From a virus (Duplodnaviria; Caudoviricetes): DNA of 64,000 nucleotides. The stretch covers positions 1 through 64,000 of the IMG/VR virus record IMGVR_UViG_3300019370_000055. One strand, written 5' to 3'. Position 1 is the stretch's first letter. Every line of letters begins with the position of its first letter. This document shows, piece after piece, positions 14,396-39,398 of the stretch. The notes under the pieces are model-generated. The model was given only the letters and a program-made list of their open reading frames with translations. It did not search any database and had not been told where the DNA came from. The translations under genes and the position numbers were made by a program.

Positions 14396-17300
14396 TTACG
14401 GTTTCAATGTCGTGCCAAGGCTCTTATGTCCCCGCTTTATAAAGCTGTCAGTGATTTGCTGGATCGTACTTTGACTAATTTTCCTTGTCAACTGCTTAAT
14501 CTCCGCATCATCCATCTTTTGTGCTGGATAGATTTGTACTGGAACATCAATATTAAAAGTGTCACCGCCCTGTCTTACAACCGCTTGTGCCTGTTTCGCA
14601 TCCTGCTTAATTTGTTCTTGCATTTTAAGTTCTGCTAAATCAGAGCCAGAAAACGAATTGAAAAGTTTCCCGTACTTACCTAACAGCGTTTCCGCAAAAT
14701 CAAGTGTACGATATAAAGGTTCTTGCTGTTTTTCGGTAATAACAGCCTCACCCTTCTCCAGCTTTGCGAAGATTTCTTTCTGCTTTAGAGTAGGCTCATC
14801 CCCAACAATGCCGCCAGTATGATATACACTATAAGGATAAGTCTCATACAGCTTCGGCCCACCAACTCGATCCAGATACCAAACACCATCATCACCACGT
14901 ACAGCGGTACGACCAATCAGCGAAGTCAACTGCTTACCTAAATCAAGGTTTGCTTTATTCAGTCTGGCTTTGCCAGCAGCATCCGCACTATGATGTGCCG
15001 CCGAGTTTTCTTTCATCTGGTGAACAATATTTTTCACTTGCCCCAAAGTCTGGCTTCCACTGGTGTCATAGTTTCCAGTAGCACCAATCGCAGAGCCGCC
15101 TTGAGGTTTCCCGCCAGAAGAACCGCCGACTACATTAGAACCAGAACTTGACTCATATGATGCAATCTGCCGTTGTGTCTCCAGAATAGCATTTAAATAA
15201 CTGCCATACTGTTGAACCGCTGCGCTTGCTGCATCCCATGCTTTGGTGATTTCATCGTTAGTAACAGAGCCATATTCATAGTTCCAGTTAATCAAATCCT
15301 GATATAACGTGTTCCAATGATTATTAATCCGATCAATGGCAAGCTGATACAGCTTTTCTTCAGAAGAAATTGTATTCTCCAGAATGTCAATTTCTTTCTG
15401 CTTTTCCTTTTCATAAGAATCAGCCATATCATCAAGCATATCGCTGGTAGCGTCATAGGCATGATCTGATTGATAATCCGCAAGGTCATTAATCTTTTCA
15501 GAAAGTTCCTCTTGCAGTTTGGCCTTTTTCACCGCTGCTTCACGACTATCATCCAAGTCAAGCGCATGAATTTGTTTCTGTAAATCCGCAATTTCTTTCT
15601 GCTTGTCTGAAACAGTCTTTGTATAATTATCTTTTTCCTTTTCCAGTTCAAGCGACTTCTTTTGTAAATCTACGATTTCCTTATATGCGTCAACCTGATC
15701 CTCCAGAGCCTTAACCTGATTCTTGACTTCCTGTTTAATCATTTCTTCAACGTATTTAAGCAAGTCCTCAAGTGCGCTGGCCTGATCCTCGACAGCCTTC
15801 TTTGCCGCCCCATCAACCTTACCAATACTGGTAATAGCAACGTCCGACAGAGAACGCAAAGCATTAATGCGGTTCAAAGCGTTATTGTACTGTTGCTGAT
15901 CCAGCCCTAACAACTGCAACTGCGCATATACCAAATCCCAAGTAGAACTTGAGGCCGCATTTGTTGCTGTAGTAAGATTCATAAGTGCTACAACATCATT
16001 ATCAGCCAATGCCTGTCTAAGTTGCTGAACATAGTTTAATGCTGTTTCAATCGCCATCTGCTGTGTACGAGCAGCGATTACCTTTTGAATGTTTTCCTCA
16101 TTGATAACCAACATCCCATTTTCATCTTGCAAATAGGCCAGATTCTCAACACCAAGTTTAGCAATCTCTTGGAAAGTAGAGACTGTTATATAACCACTTT
16201 CAGAAAATTCCTTTGCCGCATCTTTAAGAGTATCATACAGGCCAGTAATTTGATCCAGAGCATCATGAGCATTATCAACTACCTGTTGCCAAGCATCGGC
16301 AGATACAGTCTTGATTTCATCATAGTAATCCCACCACAAGTCCTCCAGCTTTGTAATTTCATCGCTGGTATCTGCATATCCGAGAGAACGATAATATTCC
16401 GCTTCTTGACGAACCGCCTCTTGCATAGCCCGATAATGGTCAACAATCTCGCCTGTGTTTCGAGTAATCTCGCCACGGTCATTTGATTCAATCGCATGAT
16501 TAAGCAGATTTTCATTCTTTGTAATTGCATTTTCATGTTCTTTAGCCGTATTTTCATAAATGGCAATATTAGCTTCTTGAATCTTGTATGCTAACTCCAC
16601 CCAAGAATCAGAATTTTCCTGATTAGCTTTATTAAGTTCCCCTAATGTATTAATCAGACTTTCCGTATCTTTCCGAAGTGCATTTGTAGCTTCTTGCAAA
16701 GAGCCATATTTGCCTTTACTATCTGCGGTTAATTCATTTAAATGCTCCAGATTCTTAACAAAGAAATTATTCTTGTCAGGATCATACTCAACATCAAATC
16801 CAAGCTGGCGAAGTGATTCAGTACCATCTTTAATAGTTTGATCACGTAATTCATTCAAATCATGAAGCGCATCTTGTTCCTCTTTGTAAACACCAATTAA
16901 TTCTTGCTGAAGTTCAATTTGTGTTCTTAGATCATTGGTATTTAAAAGTTGAGTTTCTAAGTCGCTTTTCTTAATTTGAACACGGTTAAGCCGCTCGATT
17001 GCTTCACGGTAATCATCAATAGCAGCAATATATTCTTCAATCTCTTTTGTTGAGGAACCAGAGCCGCTTTTAAAATTCTTGAGTGGTGCATTTTTTAATG
17101 CTTGCAAAGCCGCAATCTGACCATCAATTTGAGAAATGGCCTTCTGATAAGAAGATATATCAAGTTCAACCTGAGATACAAAATCTTCTAAGGACGCACC
17201 CTTAAAATCAAAATCAAAGTCAAACCCATTAAATTCGCCAGAAGTAATATTTGTCTTAATTTTGTCACGTAATTTTCCACCAAAAGAGCCAGCAAATTTT

Positions 17301-19918
17301 GTTACAGAACCTTTAACTACACCATTTGCCATACCCTCAATCGCTTTGGCACTTTCATGGGCTTGTTTTGCCACAGAAGCAATATCGGTCTTGGCTCTTT
17401 CCATATTCTCATAGATGCCCATAGCGGCATTATAAGCTGCTGCATTAAAATTACCATCTACATCAGTACAAACATCTCTTGCAACACGATCAAATTCCTC
17501 TGCATTCAAGGCCATTGATTGTGCCGCTAACTTATACGCCTCGGCTTCATCAATACCATTATCAATTAATGCCTGAACCATTTCATTAGATGCTTTAATA
17601 CGATACTCTGCAACCTCTTTTGCTACCTGACCTTCACCTTCACCAACATTTTTTGCCAGTTCAAGTTGTGCCTGTGCCGCTTGCATCTTTGCTTCAAGAA
17701 CAGTCTTATCAGCTTGAAGTTCTGCGATTTGTGTATCAATTTGAGTATCTAATTCTTTCTTTTTGCTCGTTAAGAAACTATTTACAACTTCTTTATTTAA
17801 GGCAATTTGCCCATTAGATGACACTTGGGCATTATTAAGAATCTCTGGATATACTTTTGCAAATTCTAACGCCTTGTCCAAGGACATAGTAAAACCGTTT
17901 GCTACTTGAGCCTGTAAATCTGCAAGTGTCTGGAATGAATCAGAAACAGAATCAATCGTATTTGCTATATTAATGAAATTATTAAGAGCGGAGGCATAAG
18001 CATTTGTGTCACCAGTAATGCTCCCATATAAACTGCTATAAAGTGTTAATTTCGCTTGATTTGCAGCAATGGCCTCTGTGTTTGCATTTATCTCATCTGT
18101 TGTATCTTTGATTTTTTTATCCCAAGCCGCTATTGATGAAGTATCACCAATACTCATACTCTTATTGGTACGATACATTTCTAAACTTTGAGCCAGAACT
18201 TCATTTCTTTCTTCTAAAGAACTAATCTCTTTTTGAATTTCATCTATATCGCCCAACATTTTAGTATTGGCATTTTCTTTCCACGCCTCAGTATTGAGTT
18301 TAATTACACCATTTTCTTCATACAGATAATCAAGGTAATTAGCTTCGGCCTCTGCCAAATCAGCAATCGTATCAGGTGATAACCCACCCCCACCAGCCAT
18401 TTCTTCTTGCGCCGTTGCCAGAACATCATAAGCAGACTGCAAATCAGACAACGTTTCTGTAAGATCAGAAAGTTGAGCAGAATAGCGGCCTGTGGATTCA
18501 GCATTACTATCGGTTTCGACTTTTAATGCGTTATAATGACTTGCCAATTCATATGCTGTATAACCAGAATCCTCCATCCACTTTGCAAGTTCTTGATACT
18601 GACCAGCTAATTCATTAATTCTCTCTGCTGTTAAACCACCCTCAGACCCCTCGCTATTTAATACGTCCTTCAAATCATTAGGAAGTTTTTCAAGTAAAGA
18701 TGTAAAATGTTCTGCTGGGTTGATACAAGCATCAATCGCATCAGCAAGGTTATTCCAATTCTTAACATCATCGCCATCACCAACAAAATTATCAATATAA
18801 TCGTTTTGCAAAGTTTGACTAAGTGAAAGCAACTCGCTTCGGATTGAAGCCATTTCTGCAATTTGACTATCGGTTGCATTTTGACCTAAACCTTCTAATT
18901 CCTTATATCTTGCAATCAGTTGGTCAACATAATCATCAAATCCAAGTTGTTCTGGATATTGTAATTTATTATTGCCCTCTAACATCAAATTCTGATATTC
19001 AGAATAAAGATTTATTAGTCTCTCTTGTTCCTCTTCACTGAACTTATCCCAATTTTCAGACCAACCATTATGCCATTCTTCTAATGCTTTAAAACCTTCT
19101 GCATTATTCGCTCGAATAGCATCTGCATCAAACAGCATATACATTCCGGCATTAGAATTATAATATTCGTTATTATAATCTTTAACCAAACTCTTATTAG
19201 ATTTATCTGCTGCCTCTTGAGCAGCTTCATTCTTTAACCGAATTTGACGTTCTAATTGTGCATTGGTTTCTAACAGACGATCCAGTTCCTCTTGTTCAAC
19301 GAGAGTTATTCTACCTTCATCAGATAATTTTTGAAGTTCAGCAATACGATCTTTTGTTGTCTTTAATTCGGAGTTTAGTCCATCAAGTTCACTTGCTAAA
19401 TCATCATATTCTTGCTTCAGTTCTTCAGTTGTCTTGTGAAATTTATTGAACAGATTAATTGCCATTGGAACTATTGCGATTAAGAGAGAAATCGCAGTTA
19501 CAGCAATCATAAAAGGATTTGCTGCCATAACAGCAGTTAATCCACTCATAGCCGCAGACAGACCGCCTGTAGCAGCGGTAGCAGCGGTTTCAGCGGCAGT
19601 AAAAGTTGTAGCTGCTACCGCATCTTTTATTTGCGCCTTTTCAAATCCAGCAGCACTCATTGCAGCCATCGTTGCTTGTTCAGAAAATTGCAATGTTGCC
19701 ATTGTTGCGGCTGTTTGTGTAGCCGTAAAACCAGATGCCTTTAAGGACGAAGCAACTTGTTCTGCACTAAGACCACTTAAACTAACAGTTGCGGCTATTT
19801 GTGCCTCATTTAATCCTTGTAACGATAAGTTCAAAGAATCAAATGTTGCTTTTGATATACTTCCACTAACAGCAATTTCTTTTAATATAGCAGAAACATT
19901 ACCTATGGATTTAAGTGA
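14396..19918 (-). CDS. Tape measure protein, exon 2 (annotated alone as a 1841-aa ORF from 19921)
   Basis: Long helical/coiled-coil ORF with hydrophobic 'AANPFMIAVTAISLLIAIV' and C-terminal 'YHTGGIVG'. No Shine-Dalgarno before its ATG. Confidence 0.85.
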   Translation of the reverse strand, partial: SLKSIGNVSAILKEIAVSGSISKATFDSLNLSLQGLNEAQIAATVSLSGLSAEQVASSLKASGFTATQTAATMATLQFSEQATMAAMSAAGFEKAQIKDAVAATTFTAAETAATAATGGLSAAMSGLTAVMAANPFMIAVTAISLLIAIVPMAINLFNKFHKTTEELKQEYDDLASELDGLNSELKTTKDRIAELQKLSDEGRITLVEQEELDRLLETNAQLERQIRLKNEAAQEAADKSNKSLVKDYNNEYYNSNAGMYMLFDADAIRANNAEGFKALEEWHNGWSENWDKFSEEEQERLINLYSEYQNLMLEGNNKLQYPEQLGFDDYVDQLIARYKELEGLGQNATDSQIAEMASIRSELLSLSQTLQNDYIDNFVGDGDDVKNWNNLADAIDACINPAEHFTSLLEKLPNDLKDVLNSEGSEGGLTAERINELAGQYQELAKWMEDSGYTAYELASHYNALKVETDSNAESTGRYSAQLSDLTETLSDLQSAYDVLATAQEEMAGGGGLSPDTIADLAEAEANYLDYLYEENGVIKLNTEAWKENANTKMLGDIDEIQKEISSLEERNEVLAQSLEMYRTNKSMSIGDTSSIAAWDKKIKDTTDEINANTEAIAANQAKLTLYSSLYGSITGDTNAYASALNNFINIANTIDSVSDSFQTLADLQAQVANGFTMSLDKALEFAKVYPEILNNAQVSSNGQIALNKEVVNSFLTSKKKELDTQIDTQIAELQADKTVLEAKMQAAQAQLELAKNVGEGEGQVAKEVAEYRIKASNEMVQALIDNGIDEAEAYKLAAQSMALNAEEFDRVARDVCTDVDGNFNAAAYNAAMGIYENMERAKTDIASVAKQAHESAKAIEGMANGVVKGSVTKFAGSFGGKLRDKIKTNITSGEFNGFDFDFDFKGASLEDFVSQVELDISSYQKAISQIDGQIAALQALKNAPLKNFKSGSGSSTKEIEEYIAAIDDYREAIERLNRVQIKKSDLETQLLNTNDLRTQIELQQELIGVYKEEQDALHDLNELRDQTIKDGTESLRQLGFDVEYDPDKNNFFVKNLEHLNELTADSKGKYGSLQEATNALRKDTESLINTLGELNKANQENSDSWVELAYKIQEANIAIYENTAKEHENAITKNENLLNHAIESNDRGEITRNTGEIVDHYRAMQEAVRQEAEYYRSLGYADTSDEITKLEDLWWDYYDEIKTVSADAWQQVVDNAHDALDQITGLYDTLKDAAKEFSESGYITVSTFQEIAKLGVENLAYLQDENGMLVINEENIQKVIAARTQQMAIETALNYVQQLRQALADNDVVALMNLTTATNAASSSTWDLVYAQLQLLGLDQQQYNNALNRINALRSLSDVAITSIGKVDGAAKKAVEDQASALEDLLKYVEEMIKQEVKNQVKALEDQVDAYKEIVDLQKKSLELEKEKDNYTKTVSDKQKEIADLQKQIHALDLDDSREAAVKKAKLQEELSEKINDLADYQSDHAYDATSDMLDDMADSYEKEKQKEIDILENTISSEEKLYQLAIDRINNHWNTLYQDLINWNYEYGSVTNDEITKAWDAASAAVQQYGSYLNAILETQRQIASYESSSGSNVVGGSSGGKPQGGSAIGATGNYDTSGSQTLGQVKNIVHQMKENSAAHHSADAAGKARLNKANLDLGKQLTSLIGRTAVRGDDGVWYLDRVGGPKLYETYPYSVYHTGGIVGDEPTLKQKEIFAKLEKGEAVITEKQQEPLYRTLDFAETLLGKYGKLFNSFSGSDLAELKMQEQIKQDAKQAQAVVRQGGDTFNIDVPVQIYPAQKMDDAEIKQLTRKISQSTIQQITDSFIKRGHKSLGTTLKP

Positions 19919-19936
19919 CATTTCAATAAAATACTC

Positions 19937-19964
19937 TTGCTTCTTAATGGGAATATGTTATAAT
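19937..19964 (+). promoter_or_regulatory. sigmaA promoter of the intron cargo gene
   Basis: TTGCTT-16 bp-TATAAT with extended -10 (TGnTATAAT). Confidence 0.7.
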
Positions 19965-20000
19965 ATGGTTGAATTAAATTAATTGTTGGAGGATGATATA

Positions 20001-20528
20001 ATGTCGCTCATTAAATGTCCAGAATGCAACAAAGAAATTAGCGATAAATCAGAAGTTTGCATACATTGTGGATTTCCAATTAAAGCCCAATCAGAATTGT
20101 TAAAACCGCATACGTGTAATATAAATGGCAAAATTATTGATTTTTCAAACGTTTATAATGCAATTCCAATATCAAGAGATGACTATTTAAAGTTAGATAT
20201 TTATGATCAATTTAAATATAGTAAGCAAGTTGTACAAAATATCCAATCTACGATTTCTATAAATAGCCTTGCTGCTAATTATCTTGCTGAACAAATTCTT
20301 GAAACAGGAGAAATACCTAAAGAATTTGATGCAATTAAATATGAAGCACAGGACAATCAAAATAAAATTGATAGGCAAAATATCATGCAAATTCATTGTC
20401 CTCGTTGTGGTTCCACTTCTATCACCACAGGAGCCAGAGGTGTAAACTGGACGCTGGGCTTGATTGGAGCCAGCAAAACAGTCAACCGTTGTGCCAAATG
20501 TGGACATACATGGACTCCACATAAGTAA
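20001..20528 (+). CDS. Double zinc-ribbon protein, antisense cargo inside the intron
   Basis: GGAGG at 19988-19992, then ATG 20001. CPECNK...CIHCG at the N-terminus and CPRCGS...CAKCG at the C-terminus. No GIY-YIG, LAGLIDADG or clear HNH motif. Confidence 0.85.
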   Translation: MSLIKCPECNKEISDKSEVCIHCGFPIKAQSELLKPHTCNINGKIIDFSNVYNAIPISRDDYLKLDIYDQFKYSKQVVQNIQSTISINSLAANYLAEQILETGEIPKEFDAIKYEAQDNQNKIDRQNIMQIHCPRCGSTSITTGARGVNWTLGLIGASKTVNRCAKCGHTWTPHK

Positions 20529-20963
20529 TTGAATTTCTTACGCCCCTCTCAGGACTTGGTAAAGAATAGAACTAAATTCATAAAGGTTCTATCCACTATA
20601 CATTATAAGTCATAAACACTTATGGCGGTTTATGGCTCAAAGAATCGGTAGTCTCTGAGGATTCAGGCCACTAAGGTCTGTGTCCTACTGATTGCCTCTT
20701 GTCAACAGTCCGTAGCACAGGATCACTCCTGCTTTTATCTCAGCATAGACCATCCAGATAATTTTTTCTGCTTTCGCAACATTCACGCCTATCATTACTG
20801 ATTACGTTGTAGTTTATCTGGCCCTTGAAGGCTTTCCAGTATTTACTTCTTTGATTATTTTAGAACTCCCATCACTATGCTTTGTTAGTTACGCCATATT
20901 GTAACTTTCTCAGCATAATTAGACTCACTATCATCCATAGGTAGTGTGTGATCTTATCACTCA

Positions 20964-23900
20964 ATCCAAGTTCTTTACAAATGCAGCAATTCCAACTCCA
21001 GCAAGTGCCGTTCCAAACGGCCCAATTAATGAAGTCACGAAATCAATCGCACTGGCTAAACCAGTAAGCATATCAATAATTACACCAATTTCTTCTCGCT
21101 TAAACAAATTCTGAAAAATTCCTGTGCCAGTTTCTTTCAGCGCATTCAATTTAAATTCAAGCGATTTGGTGATAATCTCCATTTCCGCATCTGCATTACC
21201 AGCACTCTCAGCCATGTTATTCATTGCCTTTTCCGCAGCTTCAAAGTTTTGCAGAATAGCTTGACCAACGCTGGCTCTATTCTTGCCGAACAGCTTCTCC
21301 ATCAACTGTTGCTGTTGCTTTTCGCTAAGATCATCATAAACCTCAGAAATATCTTTTAAGTATTGATAAACTGATTTATAATGTTCTTGTGTTTCATCCG
21401 TAAACAAAGAAACACCTTGAGAATTTTCAGTTGCCTTCGTCAAATCATAAACTTCACCAGTAATATTTGCAAGTTCTTCTGAAAGTTCTCCTGTTTCCTC
21501 ATCATACCCACGCACACGCATAGAAATACTACGTAGAGCGTTACCAACTTTTGAATCATCTTGGGTAATTTCTTGTGCCGCAGTAAACAGCGCAACGTTT
21601 TCTTCCAATGTGGAGTTCATCGCCGCCATAGCTGACGCTGAATTTTGTAAGCCATTAATAATCTCTGCATTTGACGTTGCTGCCGTATTGCCAACGATAT
21701 TAATTTTCGACATTACGCCATCAAGCACTTCTTCAGCCTCAATACCATAGGCTTTCATGACACTAACCAATCCAGTTGTTGCCGTTCCAATATCTACGCC
21801 TGGGGAGATTGCTGAGAATTGAGCCGCCAGTTTCGCCATCATTGTGGAACTGGTTTTGTCGCTATAGCCCAAACGTGACCAATCCGCCGCTGACTGAATA
21901 ATATCCTTTGTTGTTACACCAAGTTTCTTAGCGGCATCATTAGCTTCTTCATAAAAAGAAACCAAATCTGATCCAGACATTGTAGTTGTCTTTTGCAAGT
22001 CAACCAATGCTGTATCAAGTTCAACAACTGTATTTACGCCTTCTTTGATTACGGAAATAATTTTCCGTATAACCATTACTCCGCTTGTTAGACCAAGCAG
22101 TTGTAAAGTAGTATTTTTAAGAGAAGTTGCAAATTGACTTGTCACAAGGCCAGCAACTTTAGCTTCAGACTTTATCTTAGCCAATTCTGCTCTTGCTTTA
22201 GCAAGCATTATTGGATCACTGTTATTGGCTAAAAGGGCTTGTATTTCACGTAACTTATCACCATATACTTGAGCGGCCTTTGTATTCTGATTCATCCATG
22301 ATTCAATAGAATTTGAAAGAGTGGATGATTTCGTCATTGTCAACTGTGCCGCAGTATCATCTTTAACAGCTTTTTCGTGTTCTCTTGTAGCCTGTTCCGC
22401 AGCTTTTGATTGCCTTGCCATTATGTCAAGATCATTAGATACTCTTTTGATTATTGCATCATATTGGTCATAGGCATTAATAACTTGTGCATTATTTGTA
22501 CTTGTTGCAATAGTTTCTGCCAAAGAACGCAAATGTACAAAATTGCTTTGTATAGATTGAGCAGAACTATCAGAGACATTTTTCAAGGCCAAAAACTTAG
22601 TTTCTAAAGCACTAATACTATTTTCTAATGAATTAGACTTTGCTTGATCACGATAGTTGTTTGCTGTCTGCATAATAGCATCAGCAACTTTTCCTTCTGC
22701 TATTGCTAATTTGCCGGCGTTTTCAGCAGTTTGAATAACATAATTATTAAATTCTTTAGAGTAGTTAATTAATTCAGGATGGACACTTACAGTTCTTTCA
22801 ATTTCAGATGTAATTCTACGCCTATATTCATACTGTAATTGAAGTTGATCATTAAGTGCTTTATATTCATTTGAATCCTTACCTTTTCCAACCATAGATT
22901 TCTCAAGGCCAGAAATTTTACCCTGAATGGTTTGTAAGGCTTGATACTTTCCGTTTAACCCTCTAAGTTGTTCTTGGAAAACTTTTACGTCTGCTTTCAA
23001 TAAATCAAAACCATTTAAATAAGCTGTCAATGAATTATTATCAAAAGCATTACTTAATTTCCCAGTTAATTCAGTAATCCGATTTTTAAATTCTGCTGTT
23101 AAGACACCAGCATTATCGAGATGACTTTCAAAAAGGGCTAATTTTGATAGTTCTTCTTCTTTGATAGGCGCAATATCCTTAGTTCTAAGCTGAGTGGCAA
23201 CATATTCCGCATTTTGATATTCTTTTGCCAAACGCTTCAAATCTGCAATCTGAGAACTAATATTCGACCTTTGCTTTTGTGATAATGCACCATCGGAACT
23301 TTCCAGTTGTTCAATTTGAGTTTTTATTGATTGATATTGTTTTTCTAATTCTCTTAAATGACTTTCATCATTAACACTTTTAGGAGAATTTTGATTAGTA
23401 TAAGCGGATGCAATATCTTTCAACAAAGACTTCTGTTGAGACAAATACTTAACTCGTGCATCATTTTCGGCCTGTGCCTTTTTTGCTAAAGTATCTTGTT
23501 CTTTTTGCTGCGCTTTTAAATTGTCTGTGATTGCAGTTTGTGTCCGTACAACTTCTCCCGTTTCTACATTGAATTGTTTTGTTATAGAGACAAGTTTACC
23601 TTGTTCCGTTGAACCTTGAATCATCAAGTTCAAAAGTTTCTGTGTAGATTCAGTTCCATCATCTTCGGCTTTTTTCACTTCAACCCATTTATGCTGAACC
23701 TTTTCCAAAGCAATATTCATAGAGGTGAATTCTTTCATTAATTCTTTCGCACCAGAATCACTAATCTTCAAGCCAGACAGTTCACTTTTGATACGTTCAA
23801 TGTTACTTTGTTCAAGGCTAATATTGACTTTAATATCTTTCACAGTCAAAGACTGATTAAGTTGCTTGGCAATGTTATTAATCTGCGAAGTGATTTGCTC

Positions 23901-24044
23901 ACTCCGAATATTATCAATCTTGGCACTTAAAGTAATTTCCTTTTTGCCAATATTAGTCAACACTCGGTTTAAGTCTTGATCCATCTGTTCTGTAGTTTTT
24001 GCTATATCTAAACCTAATACAATCTGACCATCCACATCAGGCAT
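20964..24044 (-). CDS. Tape measure protein, exon 1 (TP901-type core)
   Basis: 'VELDTALVDLQK', 'AADWSRLGY', 'VGNALRSISMR', 'LFGKNRA' TMP core. Ends ...AAFVKNLD at the predicted 5' splice site. Confidence 0.9.
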
Positions 24045-37733: not shown

Positions 37734-37809
37734 TGGCTCCTGCGACTGGACTTGAACCAGCGACTCCTTGATTAACAGTCAAGTGTTCTACCAACTGAAC
37801 TACACAGGA
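37734..37809 (-). tRNA. tRNA-Asn(GTT)
   Basis: TCCTGTG..AGTTGGTA..CTTGA-CTGTTAA-TCAAG..GGTTCAAGTCC..CGCAGGA-GCCA cloverleaf. Confidence 0.92.
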
Positions 37810-37845
37810 ATATAAAAGGCCAAGGGATAAAAACCCCTTGGCTTC

Positions 37846-37919
37846 TGGTAGAAGGTGTCGGACTCGAACCGCTATACCACATCCCAAATGTGGTGTGTTA
37901 CCATTACACTACACCCTCT
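37846..37919 (-). tRNA. tRNA-Pro(TGG), atypical T stem
   Basis: Anticodon arm CCACA-TTTGGGA-TGTGG, GTTCGAGT loop, CCA end. T stem pairs only 3 bp. Confidence 0.7.
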
Positions 37920-37926
37920 ATATAAT

Positions 37927-38020
37927 CCACAATAGGCCGAACGACACTTCGGCATCTCCATTTCGCCAGTACGCACAATCCGGCATTGGTGATAGCTGCC
38001 TGTTCTATCCTCTATTGTGG
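37927..38020 (-). ncRNA. Candidate structured RNA (four-way junction) between tRNAs
   Basis: Closing stem CCACAATAG/CTATTGTGG enclosing three hairpins; strand assumed from the operon. Confidence 0.5.
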
Positions 38021-38137
38021 CATTGCTGTCTAAAGCAACTACTAAATAATGTGCCTTATTCAGATGTGTTGTAACTCCAGCAACAAAGTTTGTTTATAGC
38101 AAAGAAAGGAGACTCGCTGCCGCTTACCCAAGGCGGC

Positions 38138-38222
38138 TGGTACTGCTGACGGGGATCGAACCCGTATGCCTCAAGGCGAGGGATTTTAAGTCCCTTGTGT
38201 CTGCCAATTCCACCACAGCAGC
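38138..38222 (-). tRNA. tRNA-Leu(TAA)
   Basis: GCTGCTG..GGAATTGGCAGAC..AGGGA-CTTAAAA-TCCCT, long variable arm, CCA end. Confidence 0.93.
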
Positions 38223-38229
38223 ATATTTA

Positions 38230-38460
38230 TTATTCATCCCAAGGAATACAATCATATAAATCGACTGGAGAACTTGCAGTTTTCATTTTAATAAATCCCT
38301 TATCAACTATCTTCCACAATGTAAATTTTTGTTTTTCTGTATTTTGACTTATTTGATACTTTTGACCAGACTTTCTTGCACATAATACTCCTGCTCCATT
38401 TTCAGATGTAGGAATATTCTTTACTACTTTTTCGCTGGTTTCTTCAGATTTCTTTCTCAT
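38230..38460 (-). CDS. Small hypothetical protein
   Basis: ORF track; ATG at 38460 overlaps the upstream stop. Confidence 0.6.
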   Translation of the reverse strand: MRKKSEETSEKVVKNIPTSENGAGVLCARKSGQKYQISQNTEKQKFTLWKIVDKGFIKMKTASSPVDLYDCIPWDE

Positions 38461-39098
38461 AAATAACTCCACCTATAATGATATGCTGTTTTGCGGTTTC
38501 CTTTACACACAGAACTTATATGTGCAGCAGCACCAGATATTAATTTCACATCATCTGTTTGAAGAACATATCTTGCGGCATCTGTTTCACTCGAAAATGA
38601 TTTTATAAATTCTCCATTCAAAGAAAACATATTGATATTTTTGCCACAGACTTTATTTATAACTTGATTTCCTGAAGCAAGTTTAACATTCCTTATATTC
38701 AATATATTTTTTACTGTAGCTATATCTATACCGACAATTTTTGCTGTTTCTTTTTGATTATGAGTTAATTCATATATGCGAACCACTAAATCATAATCGA
38801 CATACTGTGTACCATCTCCACCAACCGTTGCATTATATCCATTTCTATATGTATCATAATAATTTATCCAATATCTTTCTCTTTCAGAAAGAATTAAATC
38901 ACTACAAGTTTCAACTTCACTTATCTCAAAATTTTCAATACCATATTTTCTTATTGCACGATATAATGGTCTGTTTTGGTATCTGTCTTTCTGGCAATCA
39001 TTACAATGCTCCTTCCATCGCTCTTGAATTGTAAACATTGTCTTACCAATATAACACTTACCATTAATTTTATTTACTATTTTATAAATAAATGGCAT
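38457..39098 (-). CDS. Free-standing GIY-YIG homing endonuclease with NUMOD1-like C-terminus
   Basis: FIYKI...CYIGKT...RWKEH...ERYWI...GYN; 'IKSFSSETDAAR'; lies among tRNA genes. Confidence 0.88.
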   Translation of the reverse strand: MPFIYKIVNKINGKCYIGKTMFTIQERWKEHCNDCQKDRYQNRPLYRAIRKYGIENFEISEVETCSDLILSERERYWINYYDTYRNGYNATVGGDGTQYVDYDLVVRIYELTHNQKETAKIVGIDIATVKNILNIRNVKLASGNQVINKVCGKNINMFSLNGEFIKSFSSETDAARYVLQTDDVKLISGAAAHISSVCKGNRKTAYHYRWSYL

Positions 39099-39117
39099 TT
39101 ATATCACCTCTATTTTA

Positions 39118-39193
39118 TGGTAGGGGCAGTAGGAATCGAACCTACGTTTCTGGCGTGAAAGGCCAGCGTCTTAACCACTTGACTAACGCCCCG
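39118..39193 (-). tRNA. tRNA-Glu(TTC)
   Basis: CTGGC-CTTTCAC-GCCAG anticodon arm, GTAGG-TTCGATT-CCTAC, CCA end; acceptor stem slightly irregular. Confidence 0.82.
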
Positions 39194-39263
39194 TATTATT
39201 GAATACACCGTTATATCTTTTAAACTTTTGCCAGTTGGCTTACTGTTCCTCCTGACATTATTT

Positions 39264-39292
39264 ATTATAATTGATTATACCGTTATTGTCAA
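39264..39292 (-). promoter_or_regulatory. Consensus sigmaA promoter with operator-like motif in its spacer
   Basis: TTGACA-ataacggtataatcaat-TATAAT (17-bp spacer). Confidence 0.85.
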
Positions 39293-39323
39293 GAGGTTTT
39301 TTGAAATTTCTTTAAAAAATTTT

Positions 39324-39398
39324 TGGTGGGAGAAAAAGGACTCGAACCCTTTCCCTTTGGGCTTCAACCAAATGCTCTACCTGTTAAGCTATTCTCCC
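39324..39398 (-). tRNA. tRNA-Phe(GAA)
   Basis: GGGAGAA/TTCTCCC acceptor, TTTGG-TTGAAGC-CCAAA anticodon arm, CCA end. Confidence 0.88.

Follow-up and report, generated by a model that had tools for sequence, protein, structure and literature searches.

Comparative analysis of a group I intron in the tape-measure gene of a gut phage suggests that its P7 helix is built as a three-way junction at the guanosine-binding pair, with a 3' strand supplied in two pieces; we put the probability of this reading at roughly two in three. No helix of group I introns is more conserved than P7, which holds the guanosine cofactor and omega-G. The intron lies in the 64,000-nt stretch analyzed here (the window), the opening 64 kb of an IMG/VR phage record that is 124 kb long (Table 1). 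The first-pass annotation of the window had described a P7 interrupted by a 35-nt hairpin, and we find the same letters on the minus strand at 20603-20542: AUGUAUAGU-GGAUAGAAC-CUUUAUGAAUUUA-GUUCUAUUC-UUUA-CCAA-GUCCU-GAGA-GGGGC. The interruption is indeed 35 nt long (9+13+9+4 nt, or a 31-nt hairpin and a 4-nt linker), and its removal restores the canonical UAUAGUCC. Read contiguously, the strand would bring G311 (20653) opposite G370 (20594), the G.G clash that had been pointed out.

Table 1. Features of the intron and its flanks in the window
Feature	Position	Strand	Pairing or remark
Group I intron, 1,045 nt	19919..20963	-	Uninterrupted homologue L002; core-helix covariation
Antisense zinc-ribbon ORF, 181 aa, in the 3' part of the intron	19983..20528	+	In all family members
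P1 exon strand UUGGAU	20964..20969	-	Pairs with guide GUCUAA (20924-20919); U.G at the splice site
Internal guide sequence	20919..20929	-	GUCUAA (20924-20919) for P1; AGUGA (20929-20925) for P10
P10 exon 2 strand UCACU (first bases of exon 2)	19914..19918	-	Pairs with AGUGA (20929-20925)
P3 5' strand AAAGAA	20847..20852	-	Pairs with UUCUUU (20644-20639)
P4 5' strand UACUGG	20836..20841	-	Pairs with UCAGUA (20691-20686)
P7 5' strand G309-A310(bulge)-G311-A312-C313-U314-A315	20649..20655	-	Within invariant AAUCCUCAGAGACUACC
P8 hairpin, 11 bp, among them a C.A mismatch, conserved loop CGCCAUAAGU	20607..20638	-	Covariation
J8/7 AUAAUGUA	20606-20599	-	Directly before UAGU
P7 3' strand, part 1, UAGU	20595..20598	-	Pairs with ACUA (20652-20649)
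Inserted hairpin hpA, 9-bp stem GGAUAGAAC/GUUCUAUUC, 13-nt loop	20564..20594	-	Covariation
hpA loop segment UGAAUUU, pseudoknot 5' strand	20574..20580	-	Pairs with the post-P9 tail
Linker UUUA, from hpA to CC	20560..20563	-	Variable (UUUA, CUUG, CAUAG)
CC, proposed P7 3' strand, part 2	20558..20559	-	Putative pairs C405:G311 (guanosine binding) and C406:G309
P9 hairpin GUCCU-GAGA-GGGGC, GNRA loop	20542..20555	-	Covariation
Tail AAAUUCA, pseudoknot 3' strand, 5 nt past P9	20530..20536	-	Pairs with the hpA loop

The tape-measure gene is encoded on the minus strand and is split into two ORFs (24044..20961, 1,027 aa, and 19921..14396, 1,841 aa). The intron opens with UGA, the in-frame stop codon that closes exon 1, and its last base is omega-G at 19919, so that the predicted spliced reading is ...KNLD|SLKSIGN.... 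In an intron-less tape-measure homologue (L002, 77% identical), the sequence ...AAFVKNLG|SLKSAANL... runs unbroken across the predicted junction. Other tape-measure genes also stop at the intron-site codon, and homologous introns that are 67 to 80% identical over the ribozyme core were found in L005 and L018 to L022. Four of the six P1 pairs show changes on both sides, and the U.G pair of the 5' splice site is present in all 14 sequences. P10 covaries as well: UCACU/AGUGA in the window is replaced by UCGCU/AGUGA, by CAACU/AGUUG in L019, and by pairings of 8 to 12 bp in L048 and L035. The terminal G of the intron was present in each of the nine lineages checked.

The core was evaluated with a 14-sequence alignment and helices P1, P2, P2a, P3, P4, P5, P5a, P6, and P8. 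In this alignment, 91% of the cells are paired, compared with 36 to 45% when the partners are slid, and 33 pairs change on both sides; the covarying helices are P1, P2, P3, P4, P5a, P8, and P10. The order P3-P4-P5-P6-P7-P3'-P8-P7' of a group I core is present, together with the P3/P7 pseudoknot, and P3, P4, P5a, and P8 are compensated. Two positions of P3 change from A:U to G:C in five sequences, P4 is paired in 96% of the cells with both-sided changes in three pairs, and, in the P7-P9 alignment described below, six pairs of P8 change on both sides. Because the L002 sequence runs through the junction, the core helices covary, and the U.G pair and P10 are kept, the element is, by these comparisons, a genuine and selected group I intron, and presumably one that self-splices. 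A very remote alternative is that no splicing takes place, in which case the tape measure would consist of two separately made polypeptides and the intron-like sequence would be a decaying relic. The in-frame UGA at the end of exon 1 and an AUG directly before exon 2 (in the window and in L183) would suit such an arrangement, but the corresponding triplets are AAG in L019 and GAG in L035, neither of which is a start codon. Moreover, P1, P10, and the core are compensated across lineages up to about 0.35 substitutions per site apart, and the exon phases always match the frame of the intron-less homologue.

Two other layouts were considered and set aside. A first manual model, in which CCAGAUAA/UUAUCUGG served as P4 and UUCAAGGG/UCUUUGAG as P3, was dropped on covariation; the former helix is P5a. 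An IA-type layout (hpA as P8 and the upstream hairpin as P7.2) leaves no conserved partner for P3', and UUUACCA is poor as J8/7. J7/3, between P7 and P3', is CCGA, and because it comprises only 4 nt, the intron lacks P7.1/P7.2, the hallmark that IA2 introns carry between the P7 5' strand and P3'. The Rfam group I model gave no match to the intron by cmscan over three nested ranges, either at the gathering score or at an E value of ≤10; since canonical relatives and Staphylococcus phage introns are also missed by this model, the negative result carries no weight. Elsewhere in the window, Rfam matches at the gathering score lie at 37928-38019, 1036-1346, and 37737-39398 (all on the minus strand) and include a skipping-rope RNA among five clustered tRNA genes and, close to where the window begins, an RT-2 RNA.

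Relatives of the intron were collected by two routes: (i) viral, metagenome, and genome collections were scanned for a pattern in which the R strand precedes AUAGU and purines, and (ii) homologues of the antisense ORF were searched. At least 15 distinct introns have the same split-P7 layout, all of them between two tape-measure halves and at the same codon. Their sources are viral contigs, metagenomes, and Logan/ENA assemblies, and one lies in the genome of Flintibacter muris DSM 110149, a cultured bacterium whose prophage carries an intron copy 89% identical to that of the window. Among 151 genomes of the family to which this Flintibacter genome belongs, it alone was matched by a P7-P9 covariance model, and a loop-based pattern scan of viral sequences returned chance matches only. 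The insertion is no assembly artefact, because 15 distinct introns at the same codon carry the hairpin; the suspicion that it might be unique to one assembly is contradicted by its occurrence in many independent assemblies and in an isolate genome.

Alignment of the insertion-type introns to a P7-P9 covariance model, the kind of comparison that the first-pass annotation had called for, shows that the insertion is conserved and that hpA covaries. The hpA stem (G:C, G:U, A:U, U:A, A:U, G:C, A:U, A:U, and C:G in the window) is paired in 99.3% of the cells of the 15 distinct introns, with six of its nine pairs compensated, compared with about 40 to 47% when partners are slid by one to three columns. 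The hpA loop and the tail beyond P9 form a pseudoknot that is paired in 97% of the cells and has two compensated pairs; one position is G:C, G:U, or A:U, and another alternates between U:A and C:G (GAACUU/AAGUUC in L152 and L309). P9 keeps a GNRA loop throughout (GAGA, GAAA, or GGGA) on stems that vary (GUCCU/GGGGC, UGCC/GGCA, and UUCC/GGAA). In a tree of the 305 nt upstream of P7, all 13 insertion-type introns included fall on one side of a branch (support 80/82), with terminal branches of up to 0.35 substitutions per site. This distribution is consistent with a single origin of the insertion followed by long persistence.

The 5' strand of P7 lies in an R-like segment (CCUCAGAGACUACC, 20660-20647, minus strand) and is invariant in 15 insertion-type introns and four canonical relatives. 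On the 3' side, RNAalifold on its own predicts the four UAGU/ACUA pairs. The base that follows UAGU belongs to the hairpin and not to P7, because the pair that closes hpA covaries, being G:C in 14 sequences but A:U in L005. Downstream of hpA, CC and the next A are invariant in all 15 distinct sequences, and both flanks of this motif vary. UAGU/ACUA together with C405:G311 and C406:G309, and with A310 bulged, corresponds to a canonical P7 pair for pair. These six pairs are possible in 15 of 15 introns and none of them ever varies, so that covariation neither supports nor opposes pairing of CC with the two G residues. RNAalifold recovers the four proximal P7 pairs, P8, hpA, and P9 but not the two CC:G..G pairs, which is expected for isolated pairs that close a junction. 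Two such pairs are thermodynamically weak and would need tertiary support; they are inferred, as is the coaxial continuity of P7. In junctions with one continuous strand and unequal linkers, two helices commonly stay stacked, and a normal guanosine pocket is plausible for this reason.

We propose the following arrangement. The 5' strand of P7 would be continuous, with UAGU (20598-20595) paired to ACUA. Between this A:U pair and the guanosine-binding G:C pair, the 3' strand would leave the helix and form the 9-bp hpA, which would project outward from a junction with no linker nucleotides on one side and 4 to 5 nt on the other. After the 4- to 5-nt linker, the strand would return, and CC (20559-20558) would pair with G311 and G309, with A310 bulged, which would place the guanosine-binding pair at a three-way junction. 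Pairing of the hpA loop with 7 nt beyond the GNRA-capped P9 creates an H-type pseudoknot, the long loop of which returns CC and P9 to the foot of hpA; this would hold CC in place. We regard the full proposal, namely, a natural group I ribozyme with its guanosine pocket across a three-way junction, a discontinuous P7 3' strand, and a CC delivered by a pseudoknot, as evenly balanced between being right and being wrong.

A different way to fill the pocket would be to use the last base of the hairpin, C400 (20564), as the guanosine-binding C and the next base for the second pair, so that the closing pair of hpA opens and no 4-nt linker is needed. Alignment positions 100-101 are CC, CU, or UC, and thus a G:C or G:U pair could form in every lineage. 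Nevertheless, we consider this improbable: position 100 covaries with the first base of the hairpin (G:C to A:U in L005), as befits a hairpin pair; L005 would have G:U at the guanosine-binding pair; and both positions vary, whereas the downstream CC is invariant.

It had also been left open that a conventional P7 partner might exist elsewhere in the intron, and our search speaks against it, as no conserved partner was found. A contiguous UAGUC or AGUCY was sought in each intron, and none occurs at a conserved position in any lineage. One candidate helix pairs CUCAG-A-GACU with AGUC-CUGAG (20556-20548), which would turn UAUAGU and hpA into an expanded J8/7 and leave no P9. For the 141 nt of the window itself, this is both the minimum free energy and the centroid fold of RNAfold, with 9 bp and the canonical bulged A. 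In nine distinct relatives, however, only 75% of the cells pair and not a single pair is compensated; the guanosine-binding G is opposite U in seven of the nine, C13:G110 is found in four, and A8:U115 is found in one. The helix also competes for its 3' nucleotides with the covarying GNRA-capped hairpin, is absent from the RNAalifold prediction, and would imply a structured insert of about 50 nt in J8/7, which is itself no more canonical. Together, these points make a contiguous P7 highly unlikely. The perfect 9-bp form of this helix (20660-20650 with 20556-20548, minus strand), which would destroy P9, is seen in the sequence of this window only, where it may reflect chance or a lineage-specific alternative conformer.

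The split P7 at a three-way junction also agrees with what is seen in sister introns. L035, L106, L048, and L073 have a contiguous UAUAGUCC at the tape-measure codon that the window intron occupies. These sisters share with it the insertion site (after ...KN-x-x), the antisense zinc-ribbon ORF, the P1-P8 architecture, an R strand of identical sequence (CCUCAGAGACUACC), and J8/7 (UUUUAAUGUA). In them, too, the loop of a downstream hairpin pairs with a tail beyond a second hairpin. This loop-tail pairing covaries, with CUUAUC/GAUAAG in L035 versus CUUGCC/GGCAAG in L073. In the sisters, however, the equivalent hairpin begins 7 nt after CC, whereas in the clade of the window it is placed between UAGU and CC, and a GNRA loop caps the second hairpin. 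Because the sisters carry a comparable hairpin after CC, what separates the two clades is the order of CC and the hairpin; the hairpin itself occurs in both. At the same codon, L003 and L004 (3601-4500) have a more divergent group I intron, which likewise has a contiguous P7 and carries an antisense ORF; in L003, GGACA/UGUUCC replaces GACUA/UAGUCC, a compensated exchange within P7's distal half.

These comparisons lead us to modify the earlier proposal that a helix bulging from P7 marks a new structural subclass. Of the options put forward, this one agrees best with the comparative data: the insertion shows conservation and covariation, CC is invariant, the sisters have the contiguous UAUAGUCC, and no other conserved partner for P7 is found; the G:C pairs across the junction remain a putative element of it. 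What was taken as a simple insertion is better described as a re-ordering of CC and a P9-type hairpin, and neither the pseudoknot between the hpA loop and the post-P9 tail nor the hairpin downstream of CC in the sisters was part of that account.

The antisense ORF has a zinc ribbon at each end (Pfam Zn_Ribbon_1 and phrog_2546) and occurs in all members of the family, those with a canonical P7 and those with a split one alike. Its homologues number 847 at an E value of ≤1e-5. Four of the more distant homologues were looked up, and three (L312, L316, and L317) have no recognizable ribozyme adjoining them; these are free-standing genes beside large tail genes. L107 has a longer intron (minus strand), with an antisense ORF of 233 aa as opposed to about 170 to 190 aa. 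Because the ORF occurs in canonical-P7 relatives and as a free-standing gene, it is not specific to the split P7. This bears on a further alternative, raised in part at the outset, that the intron has no intact guanosine pocket of its own and depends on a protein cofactor, uses altered chemistry, or has slow or partial activity. The lack of covariation at the two G:C pairs and the conserved gene inside the intron can be read in its favor. On the other hand, that gene is antisense and is shared with canonical relatives and with loci that have no intron, and the P7 5' strand, J8/7, omega-G, P1 with its U.G, and P10 are kept as in the sisters, which argues for standard chemistry. We therefore regard the loss of an intact pocket as unlikely.

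The 3' region offers one more pairing. The post-P9 tail UUCAAU (20533-20528, minus strand) can pair with AUUGAA (19927-19922), just before omega-G; L152 has a compensated version of this pairing (UUCAAAUU/AAUUUGAA), and L183 has the pairing as well. As the tail overlaps the pseudoknot partner (20536-20530), the two pairings are mutually exclusive, and they could act as a folding switch.

In the literature searched, we found no account of a group I intron whose P7 3' strand is interrupted. To our knowledge, the subgroup classifications differ in the periphery only, and P7 is continuous in all of them. Here, a structured insertion has been kept exactly between the A:U pair and the putative guanosine-binding G:C pair through substantial divergence, in a layout that is conserved and widespread in gut phage sequences. 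If the split P7 is correct, strand continuity of P7 is not required for catalysis, and the choice between the pseudoknot and the competing pairing of the tail with the intron 3' end could gate assembly of the active site. The split-P7 clade and its canonical sister clade at the same genomic site constitute a natural matched pair for studying the strand topology of the active site, and the small RNA and the cultured lysogen F. muris DSM 110149 make the question directly testable. Current covariance models miss this entire group of phage introns, and split tape-measure genes of gut phages are for this reason probably often mis-called as two genes.

Beyond this family, a likeness is seen in the P5 extension (intron positions about 127 to 234; 20837-20730 in the window, minus strand), which contains the module ...CUACAACGUAAU...GCGUGAAUGUUGCGAAAGCAGAAAAAAUUAUCUGG.... 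This extension resembles introns of Herelleviridae (Twort/K-like Staphylococcus phages), Lactococcus phage AM1, Listeria phage LPJP1, and Fusobacterium phage Fnu1, with about 77 to 84% identity over about 90 to 118 nt. Like the window intron, they lie between the halves of split genes, and the P5 extension is the sole part shared. Those examined have a canonical P7 (ACGACUA with UAUAGUCU, UAGUUC, or AUAGUCU), the 3' strand of which contains no hairpin. The matches to the extension (L300, L301, and L302) are mostly located in unannotated gaps of split genes, and the Rfam group I model detected none of the P5-extension introns checked. In L302 (Fusobacterium phage Fnu1), an intron-like core is directly followed by a gene annotated as a transposase, as in IStrons.

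IStrons combine a group I intron with an IS200/IS605 element; their ribozymes are IA2-like, with P7.1/P7.2, and they carry transposase ORFs (PMC4227781). The window intron resembles them in having the ribozyme core at the 5' end, a cargo gene past P9, and a distant 3' splice site. It differs in its 4-nt J7/3, its split P7, and its cargo, a 181-aa zinc-ribbon protein encoded on the opposite strand; this is the sole ORF in the 3' part of the intron, where no IS200/IS605-type transposase gene is present. Another parallel is the GIR1 lariat-capping ribozyme, which is derived from a group I intron and has a group I-like core, with the surroundings of P7 rebuilt by extra junctions and pseudoknots. 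GIR1 presumably lacks P1 and exon ligation, and in it the extra helix P15 replaces J6/7 while the P7 3' strand stays unsplit. In contrast to GIR1, the window intron has P1, P10, the U.G pair, and omega-G all in place.
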